A stretch of 64,000 bases of DNA from Bdellovibrionota bacterium (GCA_965207455.1 CBDBMJ010000001.1:1760001-1824000), one strand, 5' to 3'; shown: positions 1,449 to 53,666, counted from the first letter of the stretch. Notes: generated by a model not told the origin, from the sequence alone. Numbers and translations: made by a program.

Positions 1449-1521
1449 TTGGATCCTGAGAATCATTCCGACATTCTTCAAGGAACACACCTGCAATTCA
1501 TAACCTCCTTATTGGATTCCC
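1449..1521. repeat. Cassette-boundary repeat (type A)
   Basis: ttggatcctgagaatcattccgaca..caaggaacacacc..attcataacctccttattggattccc. Confidence 0.95.
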
Positions 1522-1542
1522 AACGTTAGATGAGAAAGCTGA

Positions 1543-1707
1543 CTAACCGCCGTTTTTGAATCTTATAGCTCTTCTTGATGCAAGGGCGATGGAAACAGGA
1601 ACTGTAAGCTTAACCTTTGACCAATCGCCATCTTTTGCTGTCTTCTTTGCGCCTGAGGGATCAGGTTTCTTTTTTCTTTTTGCTCCGACTGTACTTTTTT
1701 TTGCCAT
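1543..1707 (-). CDS. Small basic hypothetical protein, copy 1 (MAKKSTVG...NGG)
   Basis: ORF conserved in a diverged second copy at 4053-4223. Confidence 0.55.
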   Translation of the reverse strand: MAKKSTVGAKRKKKPDPSGAKKTAKDGDWSKVKLTVPVSIALASRRAIRFKNGG

Positions 1708-1922
1708 AACCCTACTTTCCTCTTTATCTAAACTATTGTAAAACAAAACGTAAACACAGACAGTGTTCTCAGAACCTACACTACAATCAACGTTTTACTC
1801 TACCCCTTTTCACCTGCTGCCCGCAAGCGCAGTAATGCTTGAAAACTGTTTTTCATTATCATCTAGTTTACCTATTCTAGTCACTTATTTTATGCGCTGG
1901 CACTACCTCAGAAGCCCCGGCG

Positions 1923-1950
1923 TGTCCGATAGCACGGTAGTGTACCACCA
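1923..1950 (+). mobile_element. Orphan IS21-type left-end remnant
   Basis: tgtccgatagcacggtagtgtaccacca matches the IS21 end at 17907. Confidence 0.7.
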
Positions 1951-2262
1951 CTGCCAGCAGCCCCGGCCCCAGCCTGATGTCCAAAGTGTTGGGTGTCTTT
2001 TTAAAATATTGCCGAGCATAATCTGTTTATTTTCAGCTAGTTGCGATTTTTGCATTGCTCCGAATCCATGAACTCTGGAGAGTGAGGGGGAGTTTACCTA
2101 TATGGCATAGGGATCTAAGCGCGGCTTTCCTATTTCTCAAAGATATTATCAAGTAAAAACAATTACTTACAGAATTTTTTTATAAATAACTCAATTTTTG
2201 GGTTATTTATGTTTACTTTCTGCCCAATATATTGCATAATTAACTCAATAGTTGAGGTAATT

Positions 2263-2835
2263 ATGCAAAATAAAGCAAAAGACAGGCTTTACAAGTACGC
2301 AAGTCTGCAGGAGGGTTTGTTTACCACAAAGCAAGCTGAGAGGGCTGGTTATAGGCGAAGTCATCATTCCTACCATGTAAGGGCAGGTAATTGGATTCGT
2401 GAAATGAGGGGGCTTTATCGGCTCTCTCATTTTCCTCAAGATGATGAAGATGCTCAGCTTGTTCTTTGGTATTTATGGTCAAGGGATCAAAATGAAATAC
2501 CTCGGGGGGTTTACTCCCATGATACAGCTCTTAGAGTTTATGAGCTCAGCGACATCATGCCTAAAAAGTTGCACATAACAGTTCCAAAAAAATTTCGTCG
2601 TTTCAATAATATACCTGGGATACTCGCTCTTCATAAGACTGATCTTTCAAATTCCCACATTCGTCTGATGAGAGGGTTTGCCGTCACAACTCCCGTTCGG
2701 ACAATTCTTGATCTGATTCATTCAAGGCACTTAGATATTTTTCTAGTAAAGCAAGCCCACGATGAGGCTTTAGAAAAAGGAATGCTGTTGCCAGGGGATG
2801 AGGAAAAAATTAGAGAGGCATTTAATGAAAGATAA
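2263..2835 (+). CDS. abiEi: Type IV TA antitoxin, AbiEi family
   Basis: QEGLFTTKQA..GNWIREMRGLYRL wHTH; SHDTAL..ELSD..P.KLHITVP; VTTPVRTILD. Confidence 0.85.
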   Translation: MQNKAKDRLYKYASLQEGLFTTKQAERAGYRRSHHSYHVRAGNWIREMRGLYRLSHFPQDDEDAQLVLWYLWSRDQNEIPRGVYSHDTALRVYELSDIMPKKLHITVPKKFRRFNNIPGILALHKTDLSNSHIRLMRGFAVTTPVRTILDLIHSRHLDIFLVKQAHDEALEKGMLLPGDEEKIREAFNER

Positions 2836-2925: not shown

Positions 2926-3018
2926 GATCATTTCTTGTTTGGATCCTGAGAATCATTTCGACATTCTTCAAGGAACACACCTGCAATTCATAACCTCCTT
3001 ATTGGATTTCCGCTGTAA
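2926..3018. repeat. Cassette-boundary repeat (type A)
   Basis: gatcatttcttgtttggatcctgagaatc...ttattggatttccgctgtaa, 8 bp from the stop of 3027-4016. Confidence 0.95.
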
Positions 3019-3026
3019 CTTTTCCT

Positions 3027-4016
3027 TTATTGAAAAGAGATTCTTTCTGGGTACACCTTGGTATATAGCTTAGCTATGTTGGAAAAGATTACATCTTTTG
3101 TAGCAATTTTTGAAAAATAATTGCCCATTATATTTAGCAATCTGTCGGAAAAGTTTTCTGATAGTGACACCTTTCTGTTAGCTTTCAAAATATTCAAGAG
3201 TTCACCATTTTTTTGAGATTCTTCCTTTATCTTTAACGTTATCATATCTTCCAGTTGTATGATGTAAGACATGTCATGCTCAAATGATGACAGTTCCTTG
3301 GACGGTTCATAGAAAAAAATCCCCTTTGAATCAAATTGGTTCAAGGATAAACTGATTAATTTTTTAGGATTACTCTCAATTATAATTTTACTACTCTCTT
3401 CTTCAGAATCCTTTTTATATTCCTGTAAATCTAACTCCCATTTAGTAGACGACTTGAACTTTTGTAAGGCATCTATAGCAGCAGCATTGCTATCTGGGTT
3501 ATTAATATTTAAAGCTTCAATTATAGCTTCTAGCACCTCACTGGGATCACTGCCCTTTATCCCGTCAGATTTCTTTACTTTATTAAATAAGGCACTCATT
3601 GCATTTACGGCTTCTTTAGAAAGTTCTTTTTTTGCAAAATTTATAAATTTTGTTTCAAGAAAATTAATAGGTGATTTTGGAAGGTTCTTTCCCTTGAGGA
3701 CACCCTCAATTGTCCCTCTTTCAATAGCACTTAATAATCCCTGTAATGGGCACAAAAACAGATTTGTGCTAAAGTATCTGCCCTTTTCATGAACCATGTC
3801 GCATGCTTTATTGAGTACAGACCATAATTCGTGGGAGTAATTGCTATCTTTTGAATATGCTTTAAATAAATCGTATATAGCGGAATGTCTTGCTATTTTT
3901 TTTATATCCTCAGTGCCTAACTCTATCACGTCACCAGTACGCAACATCCCATCTTTTCCATCAGAGTACATGCAAGGACGATAACTCTCAATATGAGTTT
4001 TCCAATCGGGATTCAT
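3027..4016 (-). CDS. Hypothetical protein (329 aa)
   Basis: Long ORF, no recognised motif. Confidence 0.75.
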   Translation of the reverse strand: MNPDWKTHIESYRPCMYSDGKDGMLRTGDVIELGTEDIKKIARHSAIYDLFKAYSKDSNYSHELWSVLNKACDMVHEKGRYFSTNLFLCPLQGLLSAIERGTIEGVLKGKNLPKSPINFLETKFINFAKKELSKEAVNAMSALFNKVKKSDGIKGSDPSEVLEAIIEALNINNPDSNAAAIDALQKFKSSTKWELDLQEYKKDSEEESSKIIIESNPKKLISLSLNQFDSKGIFFYEPSKELSSFEHDMSYIIQLEDMITLKIKEESQKNGELLNILKANRKVSLSENFSDRLLNIMGNYFSKIATKDVIFSNIAKLYTKVYPERISFQ

Positions 4017-4460: not shown

Positions 4461-4749
4461 ACGCTGCCAGCAACCCCGGCCCCAGCCTGATGTCCAAAGT
4501 GTTGTGTGTCTTTTTGAAATGTTGTATGTCTTCTCAAAATACACGCAAAGCACAAATCATGTAATTTCAACAAGTTGAGCCTATCGCACAACACCGAACC
4601 GACGAACTCGGCTGGATAATTCGTATATAAGCTTGCCAGAGCACACCGTCGTTTCTTTCTGATTTGTCATCGTTACAAGCCATGTTTACTCATTTCCATT
4701 CTGTTCAAGACAAAGCTACTTCGTCCCCCTGATTACAGCCCATTCATAG

Positions 4750-5070
4750 CTTGGATCCTGGGGAGCATTCGTGCCCTTGCCAAGAGCCCACTTCTGCATC
4801 TATCCTGATTAGTAGTTAAGGTTTTAGCGTACGAGTTCAGTTTTGTTCCCTTCGACGACGACGCCTGTTTTATAGCTTCTTAAGATTTCCTAGTTGAGCT
4901 TTCACACAGGTGAAGTTGCATAGTTTCATTGTTTTTTTTGCTGGATAAAATTTTCATTCCACTGGCCAGCCTCTGCGGATCATTTCTTGCTTGGCTCCTG
5001 AGAATCATTTCGACACTCCTCAAGGAACACACCGACGATTCATCACCTCCTTATTGGATTCCCGCTGTAA
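4750..5070. repeat. Composite boundary repeat (type B core + linker + type A core)
   Basis: Two cores joined by tcccttcgacgacg..tatagcttcttaagatttcctag linker; similar at 5800-6033, 16383-16645, 23380-23745, 36415-36701, 51330-51533. Confidence 0.9.
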
Positions 5071-5078
5071 TTTTCCCT

Positions 5079-5531
5079 TTATAAGCTCCATCTTTCGTAA
5101 CAGTTTTGCGACTTGAATTCTTCCTCAATCCTTGAATCTTCCATGAAGCTATCAACATAGTTAAGTCTATTGAATTGATAGAGGTAGTAGGGGGTAGTAG
5201 GGCTTGTGGTGAATGTAATTCCTGTGGAGTTGAGCCAATTCTTACAAGTGAAGGAGAGTGGTAGGGTATGTTTGTTGTTTGTTGGCCATGCTATATTGCA
5301 GTTGTTATATTCTTCAATTTCGGCGTTTACAAAAGTTAGAGGCAATACTTTTATATTGCCATACTGTGGTTTTGAGGTGTCGTAGGTGATTTCAAACTTA
5401 CTGTGGGTGAATTCTCCATTCCAGCCGCAGGTAAACTGTAGAGTTTTCATTTCGCTGTGTGCGGAGGCAAGATTTGGGGATAGGGTTACTATTAGGCAGC
5501 CTAGTATTATTATATTTTTTACGTTTTTCAC
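5079..5531 (-). CDS. Secreted hypothetical protein
   Basis: N-terminal signal-peptide-like segment ending ASA; cysteines. Confidence 0.65.
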   Translation of the reverse strand: MKNVKNIIILGCLIVTLSPNLASAHSEMKTLQFTCGWNGEFTHSKFEITYDTSKPQYGNIKVLPLTFVNAEIEEYNNCNIAWPTNNKHTLPLSFTCKNWLNSTGITFTTSPTTPYYLYQFNRLNYVDSFMEDSRIEEEFKSQNCYERWSL

Positions 5532-5799
5532 AATTATATCCTTTTTGTTATTAGGTTAAGAAGTGCAGCATGCGACCTCTTGATTATGGGTTCCTTATAG
5601 CTACCTTCCCCTTAGTTGTCAGGGCCCTCTAGTTACGCATCGAACAAACTGAGTTATTGAGGAGTAGTTTGGGCATTTTGAGGTATTTCTGTGTGATTAG
5701 GGTATGGGGGGGCATTTATTTGGTTGGGGTGGGGCATTTGTGAGTTTCAGGAGGTATTTTTGCATTATTTTTGACAGGGGTTATTATTTTGGGAGTGAG

Positions 5800-6033
5800 T
5801 TTTGTTTTGTTCCCTTCGACGGCGACGGTTGTTTTATAGTTTCTTAAGATTTCCTAGGTGAGTTTTCACTCGGTTAAGGTTGGATAGTTTCATTGTTTTT
5901 TTTGCTGGATAAGATTTTATTCCGATCGCCGGCCTTTTCGGGTCATTTCTTGTTTGGATCCTGAGTATCATTTCGACAGATTCCAAGGAACACACCGACG
6001 ATTCATCACCTTACTTATTGGATTTCCGCTGTG
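5800..6033. repeat. Boundary repeat (linker + type A core)
   Basis: Aligns to 4840-5070; ends 14 bp from the mazG-like stop. Confidence 0.9.
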
Positions 6034-6047
6034 ACTCTCCCTCCATT

Positions 6048-7172
6048 TTAAAGGGACTGTTTATTTTTTGGAAGAATATCATTCACTTCTTTTGTAAATT
6101 CCATTGTTCGCTTTTCAGCATCAATGCTAAGAACTCCTATTACTCCTGATTGTTTATCTTTTTCTACTTCTTGATAAGCATCTCTCAATTCTCTAAAAAT
6201 ACGAAAACCTTCCATAATAGTATTTTCCCACTCCTTAAATCCAACATCTTTTACTTCTAGTTCGCTTGTTAAATTTCTTACAAATTTCAACATATCATAT
6301 TCTATGCGAACCATTCCTTCTAAAAAATCATTCCGCTTCGCATAGTTAAATATCTGAAGGGAAATAGCTTCTTCTCGAATTATAGCTCTTGCTCCATCTT
6401 CATTCTTATCTGTAGTAGAACTGTTCTTACGCTTAACTTTTAGAAGACTTCTCAGGACAGGGGACCAGCCTAAAAAAGTAACATAAGACCAATGAAACAC
6501 ATCATGAAACCTGTAATAATCGGGTGATTCATTATTATCATCCACTAGGTCACCTAGATTCATGTCATTCATCTGCATTAAAATTTTATTATCAGTCGAT
6601 TTAATGAATTTAATTTCTGCTTTTCTGGGAAGCCGTTGATAGCGTGGGGAATCTTTATCACGAAAATAACCTTCATCTCTAGGATCTTCCCAACGAGATT
6701 TATTCTTAGCAAGGTTGTCAGAAAACAATTCTTCTTTATTAAGCTTATTTTTCTTCAGTATAAAGAAAATTATTTTTAAAATTTTTTTTATTCTTTCCTT
6801 TAAAAAATCTTTCTTTCTTAAATTACCTCTTTCTTTTAATATTTCAACAGAAATCTGGAGTAATTTATAAATGACTTCTAAATCATTTTCCGTGGTGCTT
6901 GCATCTTCTTGGTTAATAAAATCATCATTTAATTCAATGTTATTCAAGAATGCCAAAGCGGCTGTATACCACAAAGCATCGCCTAACTCCTCAAGAAGAG
7001 ATTCTTTATATTCTTTTATTTCTAGTGAATCTCTTTTTGCTCTTTTATATATACTGGCAAGCGAGCCTATCTCACCACAAAGGCCTAAAAGTACAATCTC
7101 CAGTTTTTTCTCTTCGGTAAGTCCTGTGAGTAATGTTTTTGTCGCTTCCCTTTGATATTCTTTAAGGTTCAT
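6048..7172 (-). CDS. MazG-like NTP pyrophosphatase with MazG C-terminal domain
   Basis: LGLCGEIGSL, EELGDALWY; C-terminal GDLVDDN...YRFHDVFH...WSPVLRSLLK.KRK...EDGARA..EE. Confidence 0.85.
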   Translation of the reverse strand: MNLKEYQREATKTLLTGLTEEKKLEIVLLGLCGEIGSLASIYKRAKRDSLEIKEYKESLLEELGDALWYTAALAFLNNIELNDDFINQEDASTTENDLEVIYKLLQISVEILKERGNLRKKDFLKERIKKILKIIFFILKKNKLNKEELFSDNLAKNKSRWEDPRDEGYFRDKDSPRYQRLPRKAEIKFIKSTDNKILMQMNDMNLGDLVDDNNESPDYYRFHDVFHWSYVTFLGWSPVLRSLLKVKRKNSSTTDKNEDGARAIIREEAISLQIFNYAKRNDFLEGMVRIEYDMLKFVRNLTSELEVKDVGFKEWENTIMEGFRIFRELRDAYQEVEKDKQSGVIGVLSIDAEKRTMEFTKEVNDILPKNKQSL

Positions 7173-7846
7173 TTCTGTAGGTAGGATGATTGACAGGGTT
7201 TTTCCCAATTAATTGGAAAGCCGTGAATTCCCCCGGTAATCTTTCTCTTCTTAAATAATTTTTCCAGCAATCCTATTAGCCTTTCAGCTTCCTTGCCTTC
7301 AAAATTTTTATGACGGATATCTTCTACATCCCTTGCAAATTTCCTAGATATCTGTCCCAAGGCAATTCTCTTTTCCTTGCCAAAATAGTAAAATTCTTTT
7401 GAAATCAGCACATGATGAGACTTTGTATCTACCTTTAAATTTCCTTGGTGAGTCCTTCCATTTTTTCTACTATGGCTTGAATTAGCTTGGTGCCACTTGC
7501 CATCCTTGTGGTACACATTGTCACCATACATGATTTTTTGGCTTCCCGCCTCATTTGGCTTTTTACATTGAAACCTTGAATCGCTCCAATACTTGTTAAA
7601 TATCAGCCTCTCACTAACTCGCATCGCATAAATTAAAGAACCTCTATTTTTCAATGCCTTGCTTCCCAATCCTAGTACCCAGTCTCCAGCCTCAGCATGC
7701 TGTCTTATACTCGACTTACAAGTGGCTAAAGTACAGAATCCATGAAATGGATTAGGAGCAAAACCAAAGTCTTTTGTAACTATGTATGTAAAAATTTTTA
7801 TCGACCCGTTTAACGTAAGGCTTTCTTTTTTTTCTTTCTTTGACAT
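7169..7846 (-). CDS. Nucleotide-modification-associated domain 2 (Nmad2)-like protein
   Basis: YIVTKDFGFAPNPFHGFCTLATCK..IR; GDNVY; VLISKEFYYFG. Confidence 0.8.
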   Translation of the reverse strand: MSKKEKKESLTLNGSIKIFTYIVTKDFGFAPNPFHGFCTLATCKSSIRQHAEAGDWVLGLGSKALKNRGSLIYAMRVSERLIFNKYWSDSRFQCKKPNEAGSQKIMYGDNVYHKDGKWHQANSSHSRKNGRTHQGNLKVDTKSHHVLISKEFYYFGKEKRIALGQISRKFARDVEDIRHKNFEGKEAERLIGLLEKLFKKRKITGGIHGFPINWEKPCQSSYLQK

Positions 7847-8316
7847 AAGACCCTCTTCATTTTCTTTGAACTATCAGTATTTTCAAGCCTTTCCGAGCCA
7901 TCAGGATTACAAAAAATCTTCTTGTCATTTATAGCTTTAATGATTTTTCTAGGATCCCAATCAATAATAGCATCTGCATGGTCCTCTATGCCAGAGGGAA
8001 GTGGAACGTCTAATTTTTTTAAAAAAACTCCGATAATTTTTTTCCCTTCTTTCGAGGCATGCTCTATTTCCCAGTTAACAAATTTTCGCCTATGCGTTTC
8101 TGGTCCAATTAGGCGTATTACCGCGCTCGCTCGCTCCATTTTTTTAGAAATGTAACCCTCATGAGATGCATTATTTTCTTTTCCGATATCGATTGGGTAG
8201 CTCTTTAGTTTCCAGCCCGTGGACGCTTTAATAATTTCCTTCAGCCTCCCTATATATTTTTTATCACCCTTGTAATAACTAATAAAAACATATTTTTCTT
8301 TTTGTTTCTTTTTCAT
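7810..8316 (-). CDS. TIR-like (MTH538/DUF1863, ThsB-like) protein
   Basis: VFISY, LIGPETH.RKFVNWEIEHA..GKKIIGV; conserved Glu retained. Confidence 0.8.
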   Translation of the reverse strand: MKKKQKEKYVFISYYKGDKKYIGRLKEIIKASTGWKLKSYPIDIGKENNASHEGYISKKMERASAVIRLIGPETHRRKFVNWEIEHASKEGKKIIGVFLKKLDVPLPSGIEDHADAIIDWDPRKIIKAINDKKIFCNPDGSERLENTDSSKKMKRVLCQRKKKKKALR

Positions 8317-8675
8317 TCTTTAATCAAACCTAACGCACCAAGTGCTCATATTCCCCTTCTTGGCTATATATTATAAGCCCACAAATATTTTTTGTCTATA
8401 TAACAATATTTGAGGCCACAAGAAGAGTTGCGCCTTTAATAAATAAGATGACTATTATTGCTAAAACTAGACCTGCACCCGTGCTGCATGGTTACTTCCT
8501 AAATCAAGAAAAACCATTCCGACACCTCTTCGATGATGTGCGGAAAAAATCAAATACTGATTTTTCAATGCTACCACCATCAGAAAAATCTAGTTGGCTT
8601 TGTACTTGTTTTTCAAAAATTCTTATATTTTTCTATCTCATCCCTTTGATTATAGTAATAATTTGCCTTTACTAT

Positions 8676-9662
8676 TTAAATTAAATTATTTTCTAAAGTA
8701 CATAATTTCCATTTTGGCGGATACCACTGTGGGATTTCACCAGAACATTTATTGTACTTTTGCTTTATTTTAACTCTATTTACTTTCCCTAAAATATTTG
8801 GGTGAGCAACTCTAGAGTATTTATCAACTTCACAAAATAAATTCTGACAATCAATAAGCTGAGGTTCTCTACCCCAGAGATATTGAAAAGACAGACCTAA
8901 ACGTGAAAATTCTTTCTCTGAGCGAGTTGCCATCTCTGAAATTATCTCCTCATCAGTTAACCCACCAGTATTTGAAAAGCATTTTCTTATCCCATTTATA
9001 GCACCAGGACCCGCAACCACATAATCCATTTCAGAAAAATTTATAAGTTCACTATAGTTAAAATCAATTGCAAATTGAAAAGCAAGAAATTTTCCTAAAG
9101 ATGGATAGGAAAGAAGTAATTTATATACCTCCATTAATGATTTTGTTTTTAATAATTTCCTTGTAAAGGAACCACTCAACATATATTCTATCAATTTCAA
9201 GTGATTCTGATACTTTTTTAGCAAATCAAAGCCGGGAGATGGCATAATATAAGCCGCAGAATAAATGGGTTTTTTATTTTTTATTTGTATTTCTAAAGCT
9301 TTAGAGTATTTTTCAAATGAATACGCTTTCCATGTTATGTCTCCAGAATAACTCTGTATATTTTCCCATGTGCTAATTTTATTAAATATCTTGAATAAAA
9401 GAATTCTAAATACAACATCTTCTTCTTTTTGAGAGCCAGAATAGATTACATTTTTAATTAGATACTGACTAACCCTGTCCGATGCTCTATACACATTTGT
9501 AAAGCGATGGTTTTTAATTATAGGATCATTTGTCCATGGTGGAATAATTCCCTTTACTCTCTTCATGAAAATATTTTGTCTTTCAACAGCAAACCTCCAG
9601 TATGTATCAAAAACTAATGTGGTTTTTAGAAAGATACCTTTTGCAGTTTTAATTTTTCTCAT
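8676..9662 (-). CDS. 5-hmdU DNA kinase / aGPT-pyrophosphorylase clade 1-like protein
   Basis: YWRFAVERQ.IF..R....PPWT.DPI...RFTNVYRASDRVSQYLI; AGPGA; LIDCQNLFCEVDKY. Confidence 0.8.
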   Translation of the reverse strand: MRKIKTAKGIFLKTTLVFDTYWRFAVERQNIFMKRVKGIIPPWTNDPIIKNHRFTNVYRASDRVSQYLIKNVIYSGSQKEEDVVFRILLFKIFNKISTWENIQSYSGDITWKAYSFEKYSKALEIQIKNKKPIYSAAYIMPSPGFDLLKKYQNHLKLIEYMLSGSFTRKLLKTKSLMEVYKLLLSYPSLGKFLAFQFAIDFNYSELINFSEMDYVVAGPGAINGIRKCFSNTGGLTDEEIISEMATRSEKEFSRLGLSFQYLWGREPQLIDCQNLFCEVDKYSRVAHPNILGKVNRVKIKQKYNKCSGEIPQWYPPKWKLCTLENNLI

Positions 9663-9663
9663 A

Positions 9664-9864
9664 TTACCTCCTGTTTTTCTTTTTCCCATTGTTTAATTCA
9701 CTCACATAATCATCTAGCGCTTGTAAAACCACCTGAGTAAGAGGCCAGCCCTTACTCTCTGCGATGTCTTCCATGCCTTCCACTAATTTTCTATGAATTC
9801 GAAATGCCTTCATTTCTGTATTCCCTGTACAGTAATTTCTATTTGGAAGTGCCTGCTTCTTCAT
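9664..9864 (-). CDS. Small ribbon-helix-helix-like regulator
   Basis: AFRIHRKLVEGMEDIAESKGWPLTQVVLQALDDY pattern; directly upstream of the kinase gene. Confidence 0.55.
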   Translation of the reverse strand: MKKQALPNRNYCTGNTEMKAFRIHRKLVEGMEDIAESKGWPLTQVVLQALDDYVSELNNGKKKNRR

Positions 9865-10234
9865 CTGTCATACATTGTATTACAATTATTACACGGTTTC
9901 AATAAATATTTTTCCTCACAGACCGAGGTAGCTATAAAAGTTTCTAAATCAATTGCCATTTCTCAAAGTAAGAGCGTTCCAAGATGACCGGGAGTAAGTT
10001 GAGAATAAAGGCTACAAAACAAAAAAACAGTATAACGTGTGCGCTCCTTAGATCTCAAATAAGAACCCCCCAAAATAAATAATAGTTATTTTGTAAAATT
10101 ATCTATTTTAGCTTATAACCAAGAGTAGAGTGTTATTTGTTATATAGTTAGAATCTTATTTATAAGAAAATGCCGACCATCTCTTAATGGCACTCGTGAG
10201 AGGCTTGCGCCGGGATTAATTCAGGAGTTTTACG

Positions 10235-11367: not shown

Positions 11368-11378
11368 ATTGATTACCT

Positions 11379-13561: not shown

Positions 13562-13565
13562 TTCT

Positions 13566-17906: not shown

Positions 17907-17923
17907 TGTCCGATAGCATGAAA

Positions 17924-43806: not shown

Positions 43807-46800
43807 AGTGCGACCACATAATTCGCTTTGCAATCATCGTGTTCTAGATCATACTAAGACATTGCCGGACAATACAACGATCACTAAGGGCAACCTTCGA
43901 GTGATACAACTCTCATTCAACAAACAACTCTCTTTATAAATTAAAAATCTTTCAATTATTTGGGGGTGGTTCAGAAAAATCAATTTTCGATCTGAAAATT
44001 TTATATTTCTCGGCATCAAATGTCATCCCTTGGCTTATTTTTAATTTTCCAAGCCATTCCTCCTTATAATAATCACCGCCAATATGATTTTTTTCAGAAA
44101 TAAGAGTCCAAAATATTCCTAAATTATTTTCCCTCAAATAAATTTGCAGGTGTCTTTTTGACATTAACAGTCCAGTAGGATTCTCTAGTAAATCAATGGC
44201 AACTAGAGCGCGCCCTGAATCTATATAAAATCCATCTGTTTTATCAAAATCCAGCTTCATTCCTTTCATTAAACTATGGCTTGGCATGCTGATTAAAGTA
44301 CTCTCTTCAATTGAGCAGTCATAAGTTCTTAATTCATATGAGTAAGAGTCATGAGTCATTTGATAAGGAAAGGGAATTTCATCTGAACATAAAAATTTCC
44401 TCTTAGAAGAAAGACATTCATCCCAATCAGGCTCACGAAAATGTGAAGAGCCTCCCTTTGTTCTTTCTGGCATCCATCCTCCAATAAAATTGCTAGTTTT
44501 CAAGAAATTATTTACTTTTTTCTCATGCTTTTTTTTATATAAATACGAACTGATTGAATAAAACTGTTTCTTTCGACTTTTTGAATATCTGTCTTCTTCC
44601 GGTGATATATCTTCTAAAAAGTCATAAACCCCATGCATTAATAGCCATTCTTCATTAGAAAATTGTACCTCTACTAATTCATCTATAGAGTACTTGTCTC
44701 TTCTATTCTTCAACCAAGTCATGTCATCAATTTCAGCCTTAATGTTTGATTTTTTAAATTCAATCTCTTTAACTTTTTTTGGTCCGGGACGCTCGGATTT
44801 TTTTTTCATTAACACCGTAGGATCAATTTGATCAATATATTTGAATTGGCTCAAATCAAGAATTTTAGGTGAGACATCGGAAGCATATGTTTGCCTATAT
44901 TTATACTTGTCATTGATTATTGCTAATATTTCAAAATATGCTATCCATTGATACTTCTTTCCCACTCTCTCTACTTTATGGCTATCCCTACCTTGATTCT
45001 CACGATTAAGCGCCGCATCTGTTCTGCCAAACAAGTCAATCTTATACCCAATATCTAAAACACGCCACATAATATATCTTTGTAAAAGTTCTGTTTTAAT
45101 TCTTCCTTCTTCTTTATATTTTTTTTTATTGCGCAAATATGGCTCAATTGTTTTTTCAAATTCTTCTCTTCTTAATCTAGGTAATTCTTCTATAAATTCA
45201 TTTTTTAACTTTTCATATTCTTTTATTGAATCAACATCAGAAAAGAGTTCATGAACCTCATAGACTTCTGCAAAGTCTCTAATTTCTTCATAGGTTTTTT
45301 TATTTTCTATTGATAGACTGGCGTAGAAATCTTTTTCAATATTCTTTGTAAGTGTTTTTTCTCCATCATCCCAGTCAATATATCCAGCATCTGTACCTAT
45401 TACATATCTAGCAAAGTCCCCCGAAGATAAAACGGAAGATTTTATAGCTATGAGTCCCCATTTTTTGTTAAACGGATCATTTCTAGGGTAGTCTTTTATA
45501 CTCTCTTTTAAAGATTCTATTGACGGCAGCCCCTCAGGAATCTCAAATCCAAATGGCGCTTTAGTTTTACTCCAGTCTATAAAATCCAGAGAACAACCCT
45601 TCATTGCTGCTAATTTAAGAATTCTCTCAGAATAATACAGAGTTAGAATATTTAAAGGCTTCTTTTTAAGAAAAATATTTTTATAAACAGATTCACAAAT
45701 TTTTATCATCTTATTTTTCTTTGCTTCACCTATTTCATCATTTATGATTATTGCGCCATATATTGATGTTACAATTCTCTCAAGAATATAGGGGTCATCT
45801 ACATCAATAAAATTATCTATTAATCTCGTTGAACAAAGGAGTGACTCCGAGATAACTTTTACAAGCGATTTAGTCGCCTTATCTCTTAAATGCCTGTTTG
45901 AGGCTGTAAAAAACCAACTCAAACAAATTGTCAAAAGCTCAACTGACTCTGAATTTATTGATGAGATATCTATATCATCTCGCCCCCATTTGACAACCAT
46001 ATTAACCACTGTCTCTTCTTCCTGAAATTCCTCATTAATGTACTCTGTCCATAAATAGTCTCTATCTATAATTTTTTTAGATTTTAGAATTTTATTTAGA
46101 AACATGGCATTTAAAGGATGCCATGGCGTTGTTGAAAGTGAAATCAGTGTGTTAAATATTTCTTTTCTATAAAAATTAAAATTGCGCTTGAGCATCTCAT
46201 TAAAATTATTAATCACAGTTCCAGTATCTTTAATCGTTGATGGATCTCTCCAAATAAGACTATTCAAGTAACTGGAAAAATGACATTGCCTTTTTGGATT
46301 GTCAAAGAAATCTATCAAATCTTTCCCTCTGGTTCTCTCTGGAATTTGTGCTGAAATTGCACATATTAAGCCTTTATATAAAATAATCTCTCGAAAGATA
46401 TTTTTTAACTCCTCAGACTCAACATCTAAATTATAATTTTCATTTTTCTCATGCAAGTATTTTTTAAGAATATATCTAGCAATTAAGTGGTCTGAAAATT
46501 TCTGATAAGGGAATCTGATTACTCCAAGATTATCTTCAGAATAATTATCTTTTATTAAGAGTCCCTCGTGAATCATTGCCTCCAATAGCACTGGTTTAAA
46601 TTTAACTTCTTCCGCCACTCTATTATTCAGGTCTTTGAGCATTCTATTCTCTAGTTCTTTAGCTTTGCTAACGGCCAAAAAATCTGTCGCATTTTGAGCC
46701 ATTTCTTCAGCAATATACTTGGCAAAATTCCATGACAACTTCAGTGTTCCACCGTATTCTACTTTTTTTCTAATTTTCAATCTATCAACTTGATGAAAAA

Positions 46801-47779
46801 AATTTTCCATAATATATTTCATCCCCTTGTGGCCACGATATGGACCTTGTTTTTTTTCCTTATTTAATGTTTTGCAATAAACTCTAAGGAACAAAGGATT
46901 GGCAAATTCTGTTGCCAGAGGAATCTCGCTATATTTTATTTTATAATGACTGAAATATTCTCTAACAGCAGACACAAGATTATTTTTAAATCCATGATGA
47001 GTCAATTTTATTATTTTATTTTCAACTCTTCTCAGGTCGAATAATGACTCATACGTTGAGCGACAACTCAGGCATACAGCAATCTTTTCGGATTTTGAAA
47101 TCTCATTAACAAAAGAAAAAAGCTCATCTATCCATATCGAAACATCAGGGCTTTCATTTATTGCATCGACTATCAACAACACCCTTTCCCCGGACTTTCT
47201 ACTCAGTCGTTCTATATAATTAAAAAAACTTTTTCTAGGATCCTGAGAGTGCAAATTTAAATTTTTACAAATATTTTTCCATATATTAGTAGATGAACTG
47301 AAATTTGTTCCAAATAATATAATTGCTGGCTTTTTTTCTTGCATTCTATTACTTGCAACATCACAAAGCAGATGCGTCTTCCCCTGGCCTGCCTCACCAT
47401 TAAGCCACAAAACATTTCTATTAAATAACAGGCTTTGATCATTTGATACATATTCTTTAGCCTCAAAAAATACATCAAGGTATTTGTTATAACAATGACG
47501 AAGATAACTCTTACTTTCATTTTCTTCTGACTCTGTAATATTCTGATGTATTTCCAATAAAATACTTTCATAATCTCTGAATAGATCTGAAATTTTCTCT
47601 ACAGGAAATTCATCTTTTTTCCCAATATTAAGCAGGATGAGAACTGTTGAATTATGTGAATTTTTCAGAGCGTTTAATCTACTCTGACTGATGTTATATT
47701 CTTCGTAACTTAGTCTTTTGACCGCCCTATCTTTTCCCAATTATTTCTGAAACCATCTCCTTATTATTAAGGAGGTAGT

Positions 47780-48127
47780 ATGGAAGAAGGAATTCAAGAA
47801 TTAGAGGTCAAGATTAGTTCTCATTTGATACGTTCAAAAAATAGCAAGGGTGTCCATTGGCCCAAAGAACTAAAGGAGGAACTCCTTGTTCTATTTAAAG
47901 AAAGCGGCCTCAGCATTCAAAACTTTTCTAGAAAGATGAAACTACCCAGGCCAACCTTGGGCTCGTGGATATGTGCTTTAGAAAAGAAAGAGAAACCTCA
48001 TTTTAAAAAAGTAAAAATTGGCTCTGAAGATAGAGGGTTTTATACCCTAAGGAGTTCCAAGGGCTATGAAGTGGATGAGTTAAGCTTTGAGGACTTATCT
48101 CGATTGCTAGATAGGGGGCTTATATGA
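47780..48127 (+). CDS. tnpA: IS66 TnpA (HTH)
   Basis: SGLSIQNFSRK..L...TL.SW; first IS66 ORF. Confidence 0.85.
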   Translation: MEEGIQELEVKISSHLIRSKNSKGVHWPKELKEELLVLFKESGLSIQNFSRKMKLPRPTLGSWICALEKKEKPHFKKVKIGSEDRGFYTLRSSKGYEVDELSFEDLSRLLDRGLI

Positions 48128-48468
48128 CTTTTTGGAATACTAAAGCTGAAATTTTTATTTATTCAAAAGAGATTGACATGAGGTGGGGCTTTGAGAGACT
48201 GTCCTATATTATTCGGGAGAAAATGGGCAAAGATATAAACTATGGGGATTTATTTTTATTTCTTGGTTTTAATAGGAAAAGACTAAAAGCGCTTACTTTT
48301 GACGGCAGTGGTCTGATTTTAATGTCTAAGAGATTAGAGAAAAAAAATTTTATGCTGGTATCTGATTTAATTTCCCACAAAATAACAAAGCAGGAATTGA
48401 AGTTTTTAGTACATGGATCTGTTCTAAGAAAGTATTTTCCAGATAAGAAAATTCTTAGAAAGAAATAA
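48124..48468 (+). CDS. tnpB: IS66 TnpB accessory protein
   Basis: DMRWGFERL, LFLF..NRKRLK.L.FDG.G..L..KRLE. Confidence 0.92.
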   Translation: MTFWNTKAEIFIYSKEIDMRWGFERLSYIIREKMGKDINYGDLFLFLGFNRKRLKALTFDGSGLILMSKRLEKKNFMLVSDLISHKITKQELKFLVHGSVLRKYFPDKKILRKK

Positions 48469-48524
48469 AATTATTTTCATTTTATCCTTTATAAAAAGTA
48501 AAAATTATTTTATCATATACATGT

Positions 48525-50087
48525 ATGGAGAATCTTCCTAGGATAGTTGAAAATGAAACAAACCCCGAACTCTTGAAGGGATATTTTAAAATTTCTTGGA
48601 ACGCTAGTTTATCGCTAGATAAAGAAAATAAAAGATTGCGGTCCGAGAACGCTGCTTTAATGAAAAAGAAAGTAGAAGAAGATCAGCAAAATCTTAAATT
48701 AGATAAAGACCTTGCGAACTTCAAAGAAACTTATGACAAATTGAATAGAATTTTTTTTGGAAAAAGTAGTGAAAAGCGTCCTTCTTCTAGGCAGAGAGAT
48801 ATGGAGAGGCAGCTCTCGCTTCAATCCGAAAGCCTAGCCCCTTCTCCTAAGTCAGAAGAAATGGATAGATTGGAAGAAGTTCAGGTTGATCACATGCTAA
48901 CAAAGGAAGAACTTGCTAAAATAGCAGAAGAATATGGCTACCCTAAAGATACGAAGTGGGAGTTTCTAAAAATTTTTGATGAATCAAACGAAGTGGGGAT
49001 AAGAGTTAAAAGTTTTATAAGAAAAAAGCACCGTCTTTCTAAATATCGTCTTATAGCTAGCAAGGGTACTGAAAAAGAAATTATCGTTACAGCATCTGGT
49101 CCTAAAAGAATAGTCCCTGGTTCTAAATACTCTCCTGATTTTGCTGTAGACGTTGTAGCGCAAAAATATCTCTATCATCTTCCCTTAGAAAGAATTAGGC
49201 GTATGATCGCCTCAAAAGGTTTGAGTATAGGTGTAAAGACTCTTTATTCCCTTTCCTTTTTTGTAAAAAGCCACCTAGAAGATGTGGCGCAGAGAATTCG
49301 ACAAGAGATTGGAGAATGCGGACTCATACTGCACATGGATGAGACTCCTTGGCCAATCAATAACTCTAAAGAGAAAAATGGGTATATGTGGACTGTGAGT
49401 AATCAAGGAGGAAGTTATTATAAGTTTGCTTCAACGAGGTCGGGGGCTATTGCCAAAGAGCTCTTAGGCTCCTATCGGGGGCCTGTGCTAACAGATGCGT
49501 ACCCAGGCTATAACGCCCATTTTAAATATATAAAAGGCGTAACACTTGCGCACTGTTGGGCCCATGCAAGAAGGAAGTTTACCGATATAGAGAAAAACTA
49601 CCCCGAGGAATGCGGTCAAGTCTTAGATTTACTTTCTGAACTTTTTGTTGTGGAGACAAAAGCGCAACACTACACCCATCTGTTAGAGCTAAGGCAGAGC
49701 AAATCAAAGAAAATAATAAACCAGCTTAGAGACTTGTTGTATGAACTAGCCCCTAAAACACGAGCAGAGAGCGAGTTACAAAAAGCCATTAACTATGTCC
49801 TTAAACATTGGAGTAATCTTGTGCTATTTCTAAATGATCCCAAAATTCCTCTAACAAATAATGAGGCAGAGAGAGCCATGCGCCACTGTGTTATGGGAAG
49901 AAAAAACTTTTACGGATCCAAAACAGCAAAAGGAGCAGAAACAGCGGCCATACTCTACACTGTCATAGAGAGCTGTAAAAAAGTGGAGCTTGACCCTAGA
50001 AACTATATCTCAATGGCCATTAAAAAAGTTCTCAATGGTGAAACTCCTCTAACACCTCTGCAATACGCCAAACATATCCGCTCTTAG
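48525..50087 (+). CDS. tnpC: IS66 TnpC DDE transposase
   Basis: FGKSSE, LHMDETP, TDAY.GY, CWAHARRKF, NNEAERAMR, GRKN. Confidence 0.95.
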   Translation: MENLPRIVENETNPELLKGYFKISWNASLSLDKENKRLRSENAALMKKKVEEDQQNLKLDKDLANFKETYDKLNRIFFGKSSEKRPSSRQRDMERQLSLQSESLAPSPKSEEMDRLEEVQVDHMLTKEELAKIAEEYGYPKDTKWEFLKIFDESNEVGIRVKSFIRKKHRLSKYRLIASKGTEKEIIVTASGPKRIVPGSKYSPDFAVDVVAQKYLYHLPLERIRRMIASKGLSIGVKTLYSLSFFVKSHLEDVAQRIRQEIGECGLILHMDETPWPINNSKEKNGYMWTVSNQGGSYYKFASTRSGAIAKELLGSYRGPVLTDAYPGYNAHFKYIKGVTLAHCWAHARRKFTDIEKNYPEECGQVLDLLSELFVVETKAQHYTHLLELRQSKSKKIINQLRDLLYELAPKTRAESELQKAINYVLKHWSNLVLFLNDPKIPLTNNEAERAMRHCVMGRKNFYGSKTAKGAETAAILYTVIESCKKVELDPRNYISMAIKKVLNGETPLTPLQYAKHIRS

Positions 50088-51329
50088 AGTACAAGGGCGG
50101 TCAAAAGACTAAGTTACTATTCTTCAGATGAAATTGTTTCATATACATCATCAAATTTATGTTGAAGCTTACCAGTACGTTTTAAAATTTCATCTTTATA
50201 CTTCTTGCTTCTCAGTAATGGCTCAAAATAGAATGAATATTCCGTTTCTATATTGACCTCTTGGTTGTACCTTGGACCGACAGAATCAATTCTTTTTTTA
50301 TTAAGCTTATATAATTCATTCAAATCACTCATTCAATCTCCAAATTAATCATATTGCTAGTGTCCATGACTCTCAAACACTTTCCCCGATATCTTCAAAA
50401 ATCTACCCTCTAACTACTTGACCCTAATCTTAGCCCAAAAATAGCTCTTTAGTCTTTTTCCAATTAGCCTACGGGTTGCTGTTGAGGCACCATGTTCGGC
50501 GCACTATTTGTTGTGTGGCTTTCATTTAGTTGAAAGAGTAAGACATCGACAACACACCAACCCCGACCAATCCCTACCCCCCCTTCACCCACATCAGGTT
50601 TATAAAGCCCGGCTGGGGGGGGGCACTGGCACTGTGATGAGAGCTACCGGCCCTCTAATGGGATTACCGGGCATTGATGGGAGCCACTGGCATTCTGATG
50701 AGGTCTACTAACGCAGGGGCATTGAAGTTTCTTGTTTAAGGGTTATTTAAGGGATTTGTAGTACAGGGTGTTTATACAGCAGCTCCGGTAGCAGCGACCT
50801 TGACCACCACACACTAATCCCAACCCGGTACCAGCATTAGCAATCCCGGCACCACCAGCACCAATCCCGGCGGCAACAACACCATCAGCAGCCCCGGCCC
50901 GGCCCGCCCCTCAACCCATTCCGGCCCCTAGAAGCCCGCAGTATTTCTTTGATCCATCACCGCCACAAGTCATGTTTATTTATTTCCTATTTGGATCCTA
51001 GGGGTCATTCCTCATACTTAGGAGTTGTAGTTCCATTTGATGGTATTTGGATATTAGGTTTCGTTTCATAGTAGTTGGAGTTCAATTTCAGGGTTTGAGG
51101 AGTTAGTATTGTTATTTTGGGTTTTGGGCGGTGTTATGTTTCCGCTACAAGTCAAGTTCAATCATTCGTTTTATGGGTATTGAGGGAGTTTAAATTTACG
51201 GAGGGCATCACTTTCTCGCTCCCACCTTTCACAAAGACAAAGTTACTTCTTCTCACTGATATGCCTAAGGGTGTGTGTTTGTTCTTTAGGGAGGTGTGGT
51301 TGTGTTTCTTTTATCAGGCTCTGTGGTTT

Positions 51330-51533
51330 CATTCTTGTTTGGATCCTGGGAATCATTCCGACACTCCCCAAGACCACACCCCCGCTTCTTTCCTGATTAG
51401 GAGTTAAGCGTTTAGCGTGTGTGGTTTGTTTTGGTCCCTTCGACGACTGTTTTATTGACTCCTCTCTGAGAATCATTTCGACATATCTCAAGGAACACAC
51501 TGACGATTCATAACCTTACTTATTGGATTCCCG
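51330..51533. repeat. Composite boundary repeat (B + A)
   Basis: Cores at ~51340 and ~51465. Confidence 0.9.
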
Positions 51534-51635
51534 CACTAAAGATTACAGAAAATAATTATATCTTTCACAAAAAGACATTAAGAAATTTATAAATGAAAAA
51601 ATCAGTTCGACTCGCCGTCGCACATGAGGCACATA

Positions 51636-53240
51636 TCACTTCTGTTGAGATTTGCTCAACTCTTCAATTAAAGAATCGATCATGGCTAGAAAAAATTCTT
51701 TATTTTCCTTTTTTTCACTTGAACTTTTCTTATCAATTATTACATCTCCAATTTTTGATTTCACATTCTCTAAATCTATTTTTATGTTTTTCTTTCTTTC
51801 TTCTAAAGATATTTTCAGCTTCTTGTAGTAATCAGAAGTAAAAAACCTCATCTTTGAATCGCGACAAATAAAATAAGCTAGAATCATTTGAATGGTTTTT
51901 TGTCTTTCAGATTCATCCCGTTTTTGATCCGCCTCATCACGTCGACTGTGTATTTTTTTCTCGCTTTCTAAATTAGACACGAAAACTGGGCTGACGAAAT
52001 AACTAGACACATGAAAGTTCTCTTTACTTTCCATTGCCTCAGCTACAGTGGCTGAAAATTTAAGATGTAAAAATGCGATAAATGTGCGTGAATGTACATC
52101 TGGAAAAATTCCTTCGATTATATTCGAGAGATTCACATTAAACTTGTCTTTATTTTCAAGATCAGCTCTTTGAGTTTTATAATATTCTTCAAAATAATTC
52201 AAAATAAAACAAGAAGAAAAATTATCTTTATTCCCTATCTCTACTGTCCACGTTGGAGGAAAATAATATTTCCAAAATTCATACTCCATTCGATGGTCGG
52301 CCGACAAGATGGGGAACAGAACATCAAAAAAATTTTTCATGTAAATAAAGTACTCTCTTCTCTCTTTTTCATCTTCAGGTAATTTTGATTTTCCTTCACT
52401 TTCAAGCGATATTAATTTTTTTTCAACTTCACCAATGTGCCCCTCAAGCCGTGAGAATAAATATTCTATCTTGTCGTTCCTTGAAACAAGCTTCGTGATT
52501 GAAGATTTAAAAAGTTCTCTGCCAAAAAGGGCCCAACAATTTAAATTTCCGTATTTTCTTTGCCCCTCAAGGCTCTCTTTATTCCAGTTAAGCGATTCTA
52601 ACAATATCTTATGAATTGAATCAGTGCTTCGATTTTTAATATTTTTAGAGTAACCTTTTAATAAGGCGCTTAATCCAGTTGAAATTTTAGCATTTATAGA
52701 AAATTTAATTTTAGATATGAAGAGTTTTGTTATCTCTAATTCGTTGGGGATTATTTCTTTGTGCCAAAAAGAAATCCATGCCTCTGTCGCTTGCCTGTGT
52801 TCTTTAGATTTTATTTTTGAAAAATCTGATGAATCTAAAAATAAAAATTCAAGTTCACCACGTTCCCCTATGGAAAATTTTATTACCTCTTTTAGCATCT
52901 TACAAAACACAATAATCAAATATAAGGCTGCAAAAATAAGCAAAATCTTCAAGCAAACATTAACATCCGTTCCAGAAAAAAATGCAAAAAGGAATATAGA
53001 GGGGATCGATAGTGAAAAAAGATAGCTTACTTGTAAGATGTTTTTATTAAAAATAATTTTATCAAAATCATCATCTTTGTCTGAAATATTTGCATAAGAT
53101 TTTATTAAAAAAGGCATAAAAATTGCAAGAATACCTAAAATAATGGTTTGGAAAAGCGAGGGATCAAGATATTCTAAAAATGAATCTACCTTTTTAAAAA
53201 TTCCATCTGGCTTTAGGCAGATGCATTCACGCCCTGTCAT
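51636..53240 (-). CDS. Hypothetical protein with N-terminal TM helices
   Basis: Three hydrophobic segments then a soluble domain. Confidence 0.7.
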   Translation of the reverse strand: MTGRECICLKPDGIFKKVDSFLEYLDPSLFQTIILGILAIFMPFLIKSYANISDKDDDFDKIIFNKNILQVSYLFSLSIPSIFLFAFFSGTDVNVCLKILLIFAALYLIIVFCKMLKEVIKFSIGERGELEFLFLDSSDFSKIKSKEHRQATEAWISFWHKEIIPNELEITKLFISKIKFSINAKISTGLSALLKGYSKNIKNRSTDSIHKILLESLNWNKESLEGQRKYGNLNCWALFGRELFKSSITKLVSRNDKIEYLFSRLEGHIGEVEKKLISLESEGKSKLPEDEKERREYFIYMKNFFDVLFPILSADHRMEYEFWKYYFPPTWTVEIGNKDNFSSCFILNYFEEYYKTQRADLENKDKFNVNLSNIIEGIFPDVHSRTFIAFLHLKFSATVAEAMESKENFHVSSYFVSPVFVSNLESEKKIHSRRDEADQKRDESERQKTIQMILAYFICRDSKMRFFTSDYYKKLKISLEERKKNIKIDLENVKSKIGDVIIDKKSSSEKKENKEFFLAMIDSLIEELSKSQQK

Positions 53241-53666
53241 TTAACCTTCAATTCTGACTCATGGCTTGATTTCCAAATTATAGCTCATTCGATTATTTCT
53301 TTATAAATAGATTTAATTCATTTTAAATCAACAACACTTCATCTATTTACTTTATAAACTAAAATAATTTATTTTTCACTATAATTCTATTAAGAAAATA
53401 GATTTTTCAGCAATACACTAAACTGTGTATAATGATCTTTCTCGAAAAAGACTTCTTTAACTTAGGATCATACTACCAAAACTGCCTCTATGAAACTAAG
53501 ATAAAATCACTGCAACCTACTCTTTTCACTGCCATTGCACTCTAAGAGTAGATATGCTTGGCGTATTGCCGGGGTGTTAGAGGAATTTAGTGGTATTTAT
53601 AATATTTAAATTTATCGTTTGATCTTTCTGATGTACCTCAAGAGCACACCCTCGATTCTTTCCGGC

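Follow-up and report, generated by a model that had tools for sequence, protein, structure and literature searches.

A short repeat closes co-oriented, mostly anti-phage gene blocks in an island of a Bdellovibrionota genome

We describe here an island of ~67 kb in the genome of a Bdellovibrionota bacterium (GCA_965207455.1; 2,384,602 bases in three contigs) in which about twenty blocks, mostly of anti-phage genes, are each closed by one repeat of ~115 bases. The stretch of DNA analyzed comprises 64,000 nucleotides (C1:1,760,001-1,824,000) and is referred to as the window; positions are given in window coordinates unless another sequence is named. The repeat copies form one family, are confined to this island in a single orientation, stand at the 3' ends of genes, keep sharp ends in many sequence contexts and accompany defense cargo. 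We tentatively favor the explanation that the island is a lineage-specific array of nonautonomous cassettes recombining at the ~55-bp core of the repeat, with a recombinase acting in trans or since lost, and we give this explanation slightly less than an even chance of being correct. The account rests on one genome.

Confinement and anatomy of the repeat

An initial annotation of the window had listed about 17 core copies, near positions 1449, 2940, 4750, 4990, 5955, 16385, 16565, 23400, 23620, 24115, 28621, 30714, 36425, 36620, 41930, 51340 and 51465, together with a fragment at 53620, and had distinguished two types of tail, A and B, on the common core. Every one of these positions was recovered, and a de novo repeat search returned composite families with A and B tails at the same places. 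The core pattern as written in that annotation had 11 matches at ≤3 mismatches in the window, all on the plus strand, compared with none in 100 shuffles. Searches of the whole genome gave 18 matches at E ≤ 2.2e-7 with a hidden Markov model (HMM) built from ten A-type copies, 19 matches with a sequence-only covariance model, and 19 matches at E ≤ 6.4e-5 plus four marginal ones (E 0.011-0.06) with a core-only HMM built from 19 copies. These three profile searches agree on one strand and on the interval C1 1,746,940-1,813,655. According to the core HMM, 23/23 core copies are co-oriented and span positions -13,035 to 53,655; the array thus extends ~13 kb beyond the left edge of the window, where three further A-type copies and one marginal copy are located. 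No core was found outside the island in the 2.38-Mb genome, the best core-HMM match elsewhere having E = 2.3, so that the copies are confined to one island and not dispersed.

This distribution bears on the possibility that the repeat is a dispersed element of the repetitive extragenic palindromic (REP/REPIN) or miniature inverted-repeat transposable element (MITE) type. Although the repeat is short, noncoding and intergenic, as expected of such elements, 23/23 copies lie in one island on one strand and the repeat is not palindromic. Its folds contain no pairing between the repeat ends of the kind formed by the terminal inverted repeats of MITEs, and the genome, which is 94.7% complete, has no match to the Y1/REP-associated tyrosine transposase (RAYT) family PF01797. 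We rejected a REP, MITE or RAYT origin on confinement, single orientation, lack of a fold and the lack of a PF01797 match, and we assign it next to no probability.

Outside this genome, a BLAST search of 40 relatives with a 281-nt composite of the repeat gave only two marginal matches, of which one lies inside a 309-aa open reading frame (ORF) and the other covers 22 nt. With the covariance model, two of 126 other genomes of the class each had a single marginal match. Exact-pattern scans of genome, metagenome and viral contig collections returned no match, and the repeat was not matched by BLAST in plasmid and phage collections. Among sequencing runs, one contained a fraction of 0.94 of the words searched and is probably the source sample, another contained 0.06, and no RNA run was listed. 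In the only relative of the same family (G001), no direct-repeat family was present in the 17 kb beside kdsA or in an 11.6-kb contig carrying the ABC-transporter ortholog.

The anatomy of the repeat is described here in the sense of the cargo, that is, on the minus strand. The core of ~55 bp is common to all copies. It starts with GGTGTGTTCCTTG, continues after a variable spacer of 5-6 nt with TGTCGRAATGATTCTCAGGATCCAAAC, and has a sharp end, CCAA(A/G)C. Each core carries one of two upstream arms. Arm A, of ~60 nt, begins at its 5' end with a purine-rich TAAA...TTACAG motif and has GGGAATCCAATAAGTAAGGTTATGAAT as its most conserved block; arm B is ~85 nt long. By eye we had suspected that A and B are diverged homologs, a suggestion withdrawn because their global alignments are no better than those of shuffles (z -0.2 to -0.6); the arms are unrelated. 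A coding function of the repeat was also rejected, since reading frames on both strands are broken by indels between copies. The repeat does hold conserved stop codons and purine-rich, Shine-Dalgarno-like runs. The motif GANTC occurs 31 times in the 1,318 nt of A-type copies (23.5 per kb, for example in 16549-16663), 7.5 times the genome-wide frequency of 3.1 per kb; the A-type copies are related, so that the enrichment reflects two to four sites of an ancestral unit.

Arm A is always located behind cargo. Six of the 13 A-type copies start no more than 15 nt from a minus-strand stop codon and 11 no more than 100 nt away. The proximity of repeat copies to stop codons, pointed out in the initial annotation, is borne out by gaps of 14, -10, -6, -4 and 10 nt at stops 1543, 3027, 5079, 6048 and 28720, respectively, and the three ORFs with stops at 3027, 5079 and 6048 terminate inside the repeat's own 5' motif. 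Arm B stands either behind a 74-codon gene, here called ORF74, or behind a "linker" whose length varies between ~40 and 155 nt among copies; the B-tail copy said to abut position 23747 does end at 23740, 7 nt from the ORF74 stop at 23747. Downstream of the core follow the linker, an O module of ~75 bp containing a short hairpin and a stop codon whose position is conserved, a P piece, or unique DNA. Arm A and core have the same 5' end (TAAA...TTACAG) behind at least eight unrelated cargo genes, and the 3' end of the core, CCAA(A/G)C, is constant before at least six different sequences, namely the linker, O, an insert followed by O, P and three unique sequences.

Eighteen cores had readable junctions on both sides. 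Arm A leads to the linker in five of them and to unique DNA in three, and arm B leads to O in five. The remaining five cores each represent a type of their own: arm A to O, arm B to the linker, arm A to P, arm A to a deletion reaching into the next B arm, and a short B-like arm to linker-like sequence. As read by eye, the core joins arms and downstream flanks in free combination. The sole A-to-O and the sole B-to-linker junctions flank ORF74 on either side (24210 to 23604). The repeat copies are mosaic among themselves. We considered the junction at 1491 as a clean core-to-core collapse of the locus at 4795 and rejected this, because the two differ by a 107-nt indel with only GCT as microhomology.

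Origin of the array

Our preference for recombination directed by the core is based on the confinement of the repeat, its single orientation, the constant ends of the unit, the free combination of arms and flanks, and the position of ORF74 between two junctions of recombinant appearance. The sharpness of both ends in many contexts is what a discrete recombination unit would produce, and it does not fit random segmental duplication. The combination of unrelated arms with a shared core corresponds to the construction of att sites, and conserved blocks separated by variable spacers of 5-6 nt suggest, judging from the sequence, recognition by a protein. The GC content of the island, below that of the genome, the excess of minus-strand ORFs and the predominance of known defense systems in the cargo (see below) also speak for this proposal, as do the precedents of integrase-less units in CIME accretion (PMC5704250) and in tycheposon islands (10.1101/2020.12.28.424599). 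We infer that the core is a site of DNA exchange carried out by a site-specific enzyme.

According to this proposal, a unit would consist of a 5' leader, a cargo of one to about ten genes, the ~60-nt 3' arm and the ~55-nt core. Recombination at the core or adjacent to it would enlarge and reshuffle the array; the core would be read as duplex DNA rather than as a folded strand, and the array would work like an integron array or like the integrase-less islands (cis-mobilizable elements, CIMEs) that are joined by tandem accretion. The integration of a circle containing O, ORF74, arm B and a core into an A-linker site would produce the A-to-O and B-to-linker junctions on either side of ORF74. The enzyme would be encoded elsewhere in the genome, or would have been lost, leaving a fossil array.

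Nine tyrosine recombinases and one large serine recombinase are encoded in the genome, all outside the island. Candidates would be the XerC-like and XerD-like proteins, which scored 318.7 and 304.4 bits, the seven other tyrosine recombinases and the serine recombinase. Comparison of 17 family-less cargo ORFs with PHROGs gave no recombinase-like match. An IS110 bridge-type mechanism and a reverse-transcriptase mechanism were rejected because PF01548 and PF00078, respectively, have no match in the genome. Contig C2, of 5,588 bases, encodes a 381-aa tyrosine recombinase and could represent a small plasmid or an excised element; the island repeat had no match on it.

A number of observations weigh against core-directed recombination. 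The island and ~20 kb on either side contain no recombinase gene, in line with the initial annotation, which had seen no integrase in view. The nearest one, encoding a phage-type tyrosine integrase, lies ~25 kb to the left, past rplM, rpsI, a class II aminoacyl-tRNA synthetase gene (tRNA-synt_2), an M17 leucyl aminopeptidase gene and lptF/G. A clear inverted pair of binding sites is missing from the core, in which the one dyad present is weak and does not surpass a slid control, and the junction types were assigned by eye. Cassettes reach ~10.9 kb and some contain genes on the opposite strand. The only resolvable indel between related junctions has a 3-nt microhomology and does not correspond to a core-to-core crossover, and the repeat copy at 30.8 kb drags along ~75 nt of the end of another cassette's gene. 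Further noncoding modules of the island, U1, U2, P, the leader of a Lys-rich gene, T and a 486-bp block, are duplicated with variable ends. Duplicated modules and microhomology indels indicate ordinary duplication and recombination at work, which could explain part of the pattern. Finally, none of the other genomes and collections searched contains the repeat, so that neither a cassette pool nor transfer is indicated.

Taken together, these points lead to the most serious competing explanation, a mosaic generated by ordinary processes. Noncoding, perhaps regulatory, flanks would have spread within the island by segmental duplication, gene conversion and RecA-dependent recombination, with no dedicated recombinase involved. 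The many module families duplicated with variable end points, including the 486-bp block at 97% identity, argue for it, as do the mosaic structure of the repeat copies, which implies gene conversion, the microhomology indels, the foreign gene end attached to the copy at 30.8 kb and the lack of an island-linked recombinase. Restriction-modification genes flanked by long direct repeats in the absence of a mobile-element gene are known (PMC2853133). However, random breakpoints should not repeat one 5' end behind at least eight cargos and one 3' end before at least six sequences, and neither the strict co-orientation nor the confinement of 23 copies is required by this model. A core of 55 bp is, moreover, a short substrate for RecA. 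We regard the mosaic as a substantial possibility, even if it falls well short of probable.

The proximity of the repeat to stop codons allows a role at the RNA level instead, with the repeat as a shared 3' untranslated or intercistronic element, such as a stabilizer, a processing site, a binding site of a regulator or a source of stop codons in several frames, and with its link to block boundaries being secondary. In agreement with this, six of 13 A-type copies start at or within 15 nt of a stop, always in the cargo sense, and the conserved stop codons, the Shine-Dalgarno-like runs and the GANTC frequency of A-type copies described above could have such a basis. By contrast, no conserved fold was detected: the consensus fold (RNAalifold) had -0.64 kcal/mol and no compensatory pairs. 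The imperfect hairpin that had been proposed for the core does form in some copies, weakly (-0.4 to -5.3 kcal/mol), with z scores of only -1.9 to +1.1, and its share of paired cells, 81.9% compared with 78.8% in shuffles, did not exceed that of a control slid by -2 columns (87.5%). The covariance models of Rfam 15 had no match at gathering score over the whole window and none at E ≤ 1 over 35500-36850 and 1300-6150, which argues against a known noncoding RNA, and a simple scan placed no terminator inside the repeat. An RNA-level role alone also leaves the absence of the repeat from the rest of the genome unexplained. We thus consider it improbable.

The initial annotation had maintained that the repeat differs from integron attC sites, and this was confirmed. 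The RYYYAAC...GTTRRRY box pair was present in 0/21 repeat copies, and the whole island contained 10 such pairs compared with a shuffle mean of 12. Single-strand DNA folding of four units of the A and B types on both strands (eight strands) gave z scores of -1.49 to +1.40, that is, no fold. No protein of the genome exceeded the IntI cut-off of 265 bits (TIGR02249); the best scores, 128.5 and 116.4 bits, belonged to the XerD-like and XerC-like proteins. Absence of IntI alone does not exclude a cluster of attC sites lacking an integrase (CALIN), which needs no IntI. A true integron array of this type, with unusual attC sites, would account for the cassette-like layout, the co-orientation, the sites at ORF 3' ends and the defense cargo, which is of a type carried by chromosomal integrons (PMC4889954). 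On box search, folding and absence of IntI together, we rejected an attC/integron identity, and an integron array without integrase is in our judgment highly improbable.

Somewhat less remote, though still very doubtful, are Xer-dependent elements resembling integrative mobile elements exploiting Xer (IMEX) or pdif modules, with ATAA-N6-TTATG in arm A as a dif-like site for XerC and XerD. Such elements have a dif-like site of 28 bp (11-6-11) and are found at the dif of the chromosome or on plasmids. The top-conserved block of arm A does read AATCCAATAA-GTAAGG-TTATGAATCGT, the genome encodes XerC-like and XerD-like proteins, and IMEX elements, which occur as arrays of direct repeats, likewise do not encode a recombinase themselves. 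On the other hand, only ~12 of 22 arm positions match the E. coli dif motif, the spacer is 5 nt rather than 6 nt in three of 13 copies (1436, 2926 and 4976), and B-type copies do not contain the motif. The island is moreover located near the minimum of the cumulative GC skew and not near its maximum (~740 kb), by which a dif candidate was placed at C1:760,243.

Core-directed recombination might have used a conserved gene as its target, and the O module offers the only gene-end match among the island repeats, corresponding to the last 41 nt and the 3' flank of an LtaS/sulfatase-like gene. The core itself matches no gene. A search of 20 relatives for the LtaS/sulfatase-like gene gave no match at E ≤ 1e-20. 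The gene can therefore not be regarded as a conserved integration target, and the idea of insertion at the 3' end of a conserved "sulfatase" gene is weakened. The window and 60 kb of its flanks contain no gene for a tRNA or a tmRNA.

A more far-reaching claim is that the island is a working gene-capture platform, an independent Bdellovibrionota analog of integrons that collects, stacks and reshuffles anti-phage systems by means of a ~115-bp duplex site (arm plus core) and a distant recombinase. We consider this unlikely. In terms of the distinct repeat-delimited system put forward in the initial annotation, the descriptive part holds: the repeat is not attC, is limited to a single island and marks the 3' ends of co-oriented, mostly defense-related units in an integron-like layout. 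The active stockpiling and shuffling of genes remains a proposal; no recombinase linked to the island was found, and the repeat is in no second genome searched.

Cargo and other duplicated modules

The island has a GC content of 36.2%, compared with 40.2% for the genome. Its ORFs of ≥80 aa number 39 on the minus strand versus 16 on the plus strand, and of the latter five are genes of insertion sequences (IS) and about six overlap repeats. Naming of the cargo with Pfam and PADLOC shows that it is dominated by known defense systems, and the description of the cargo as co-oriented and defense-like is thus corroborated. PDC-M68A and PDC-M68B, of the ABC-3C type, are among these systems, and a nucleotide-modification set (MazG_C, Nmad2, hmdU-kinase-like) sits together with ThsB. 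The distance between cores ranges from 0.12 to ~10.9 kb, and units often comprise several genes. The left part of the island, beyond the window, contains several Sel1-repeat genes. Coordinates of the features are listed in Table 1.

Table 1. Repeat copies, modules and cargo of the island, in window coordinates
Feature	Position	Strand	Remark
PDC-M68A cargo (ABC-3C type effector)	292..1047	-	Pfam/PADLOC
A-type repeat copy (arm A + core)	1436..1529	-	behind 54-aa Lys-rich gene, stop 1543
AbiEi cargo, opposite strand	2209..2835	+	Pfam/PADLOC
A-type repeat copy	2926..3037	-	stop 3027 of 329-aa gene inside its 5' TAAA motif
B-type repeat copy (arm B + variant core)	4733..4871	-	then shortened O module
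A-type repeat copy	4976..5085	-	stop 5079 of 150-aa gene within its 5' end
Linker + partial B arm, core gone	5776..5918	-	
A-type repeat copy	5939..6052	-	MazG_C gene (stop 6048) runs into repeat
Cargo block: MazG_C, Nmad2, ThsB-TIR, hmdU-kinase-like, type II cyclic-oligonucleotide-based anti-phage signaling system (CBASS; 2TM effector, JAB, E1-E2, two cyclases)	6048..15558	-	
B-type repeat copy, variant core	16377..16510	-	
A-type repeat copy + ~50-nt 5' extension (module T)	16549..16712	-	
IS21-family insertion (istA, istB)	17900..20389	+	nine tandem 24-nt repeats at left end
Core copy, short B-like arm only	23381..23447	-	
B-type repeat copy	23604..23740	-	7 nt past ORF74 stop; then linker
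ORF74, first copy	23747..23971	-	between A-core and B-core; T5orf172/GIY-YIG-like, sub-threshold
O module, behind core	24034..24109	-	stop at conserved position, short hairpin
A-type repeat copy	24102..24210	-	O directly after
1024-aa SMC/ABC-type ATPase cargo (Ppl/mad3-like)	25061..28135	-	
A-type repeat copy, core variant 2	28601..28710	-	10 nt past ShosT stop 28720
Shosta cargo (ShosA + ShosT)	28720..30241	-	
A-type repeat copy, core variant 2	30702..30878	-	plus ~75 nt matching 3' end of MazG_C gene; 412-aa gene stop 30876
Cargo block: PD-T7-4, 395-aa protein, Lipase_3, 412-aa protein	30876..35564	-	
O module	36298..36373	-	
B-type repeat copy	36413..36547	-	within 486-bp block, 97% identical to 50976-51460
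A-type repeat copy with module T	36606..36769	-	behind PDC-S39 gene, stop 36793
Cargo: PDC-S06 ATPase + PDC-S39 (DUF7380/DUF4209)	36793..41388	-	
B-like core (variant 2), then O module	41842..41981	-	
Avs2 cargo (STAND NTPase)	43952..47740	-	
IS66-family insertion	47780..50087	+	
O module	51211..51286	-	
B-type repeat copy	51321..51460	-	
A-type repeat copy	51447..51545	-	linker deletion fuses its core to next B arm
Degenerate core fragment	53620..53658	-	behind second ORF74
ORF74, second copy	53667..53891	-	
O module	53921..53996	-	last 41 nt, stop and 3' flank of LtaS/sulfatase-like gene (53953-56103); right limit of repeat-bearing island

ORF74, with a 74-aa product, is present in a third copy at L002 ~16552-16784 in addition to the two in Table 1. 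It resembles T5orf172/MUG113, of the GIY-YIG superfamily, at a sub-threshold level (E 0.0056 and 0.074 for T5orf172). A VYKF strand is conserved at its C terminus and may indicate a circular permutation. Homologs of 45-53% identity are found in metagenomes; among five such loci, the two long ones that were examined (L036 and L037) contained no repeat array around the homolog, and neither did the one other genome of the phylum, out of 400, that has one. Given the sub-threshold T5orf172 match and the lack of arrays around the homologs examined, we rejected ORF74 as a driver resembling a homing endonuclease; ORF74 is ordinary cargo.

A second small gene, at the head of several cassettes, encodes a lysine-rich protein of 54 aa and occurs in four copies (1543-1707 and ~4056-4220; L002 ~17705-17974 and ~13042-13236), each with a conserved leader of ~330 nt. 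Pfam, NCBIfam and PHROGs assign the protein to no family; it may be a small regulator that binds DNA. Single copies of a 24-nt motif are located in its conserved leaders (1924-1971 and 4413-4460), and nine tandem copies of the same motif (period 24) are found at 17900-18125, directly upstream of istA of the IS21-family insertion.

Among the defense systems, the CBASS operon contains two adjacent cyclase genes of the CD-NTase type (13566-14558 and 14587-15558), to which PADLOC assigns different cyclase models. An orphan second ShosA (L002 9467-10354) shares 85% nucleotide identity with the window copy (29350-30248). It was co-duplicated with the upstream repeat copy and without ShosT, in whose place a Sel1-repeat fragment follows.

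The 486-bp block is a direct duplication of 97% identity (36064-36547 and 50976-51460) that brackets ~15 kb containing PDC-S39, PDC-S06, Avs2 and IS66, and it is a ready substrate for deletion or amplification of this segment. Long noncoding leaders of up to ~850 nt, G-poor and rich in C and A (35565-36413, 15566-16384 and 5560-5830), are shared in front of unrelated defense systems (PD-T7-4 and CBASS) and may constitute a common regulatory region or RNA. A leader piece of ~170 bp (35777-35949 and ~23016-23346) recurs outside the island, at C1 ~237,123-237,294 and C3 ~36,805-36,969 with 76-78% identity, and is the only island module present elsewhere in the genome. Just to the right of the island, a segmental duplication of 94-100% identity (58976-59682 and 63135-63835) comprises the last part of a gene for an ABC-2 permease and the first part of one for a prepilin peptidase.

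Comparison with known systems

To our knowledge, the assembly of defense islands is largely unexplained outside integrons, prophages, satellites and transposons. In the island described here, at least a dozen recognized defense systems lie between copies of one private, sharp-ended repeat, and no mobility gene is seen. Should the core prove to be a recombination site, the island would represent a second, structurally different way to build a cassette bank, and the core would be a defined DNA substrate with which to fish out the enzyme. Otherwise the island is a clear case of duplication and recombination of short flanks imitating an integron, and a warning for automated "integron-like" calls. 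A limited, keyword-based literature search returned no array like this in Bdellovibrionota and no comparable nonfolding cassette repeat. The layout is integron-like, yet it fails the tests that define integrons and CALIN, and neither a conserved target gene nor an integrase, both features of classical accretion islands, was found in it.

The closest resemblance in layout is to sedentary chromosomal integrons and to CALIN, clusters of attC sites lacking an integrase (PMC4889954, Cury et al. 2016). They share with the island a long one-directional array, promoter-poor units, a homogeneous repeat at or near the stop codon and anti-phage cargo, and CALIN also share the lack of an integrase adjoining the array (PMC4889954). 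They differ from the island, in which the repeat is unfolded and has neither R/L boxes nor a design with extrahelical bases, the genome has no IntI, the units contain multiple genes (0.12 to ~10.9 kb) and a shared core is combined with two unrelated arms.

Stacks of units that lack an integrase, placed behind att repeats, have been described in the accretion of CIMEs of the ICESt1 type (PMC5704250) and in the tycheposon islands of Prochlorococcus (10.1101/2020.12.28.424599). Such islands have in common with ours co-oriented units, direct repeats sharing a core, mostly no recombinase, and adaptive or defense cargo; newer units push older ones along (PMC5704250). The ssrA islands of Dehalococcoides provide a further parallel (PMC3146451). 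In these accretion systems, the repeat corresponds to the terminal part of a conserved gene, for a tRNA, a tmRNA or a protein, that serves as the target, and an integrase-bearing element is usually near, whereas here tRNA and tmRNA genes are absent, the LtaS-like gene matching O was not found in 20 relatives, and there is no integrase-bearing unit.

The rAID-1 clusters of Bacteroidales are reported to be co-directional arrays of defensive genes of low GC content, between which the intergenic sequences are repetitive and "reminiscent of integrons" (10.1101/471110, Ross et al.). The rAID-1 clusters have a gene for a XerD-like recombinase at the 5' end, in contrast to the island, which has none at either end, and their cargo consists of toxin immunity genes (10.1101/471110), whereas here it consists of anti-phage systems in a different phylum. 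Lastly, the insertion of defense genes with long target duplication, as described by Furuta, Abe and Kobayashi (2010; PMC2853133), resembles our case in its direct repeats of tens to ~100 bp and in the lack of a mobile-element gene. Those insertions are single events at varied sites (PMC2853133), whereas here one repeat recurs 23 times in series.

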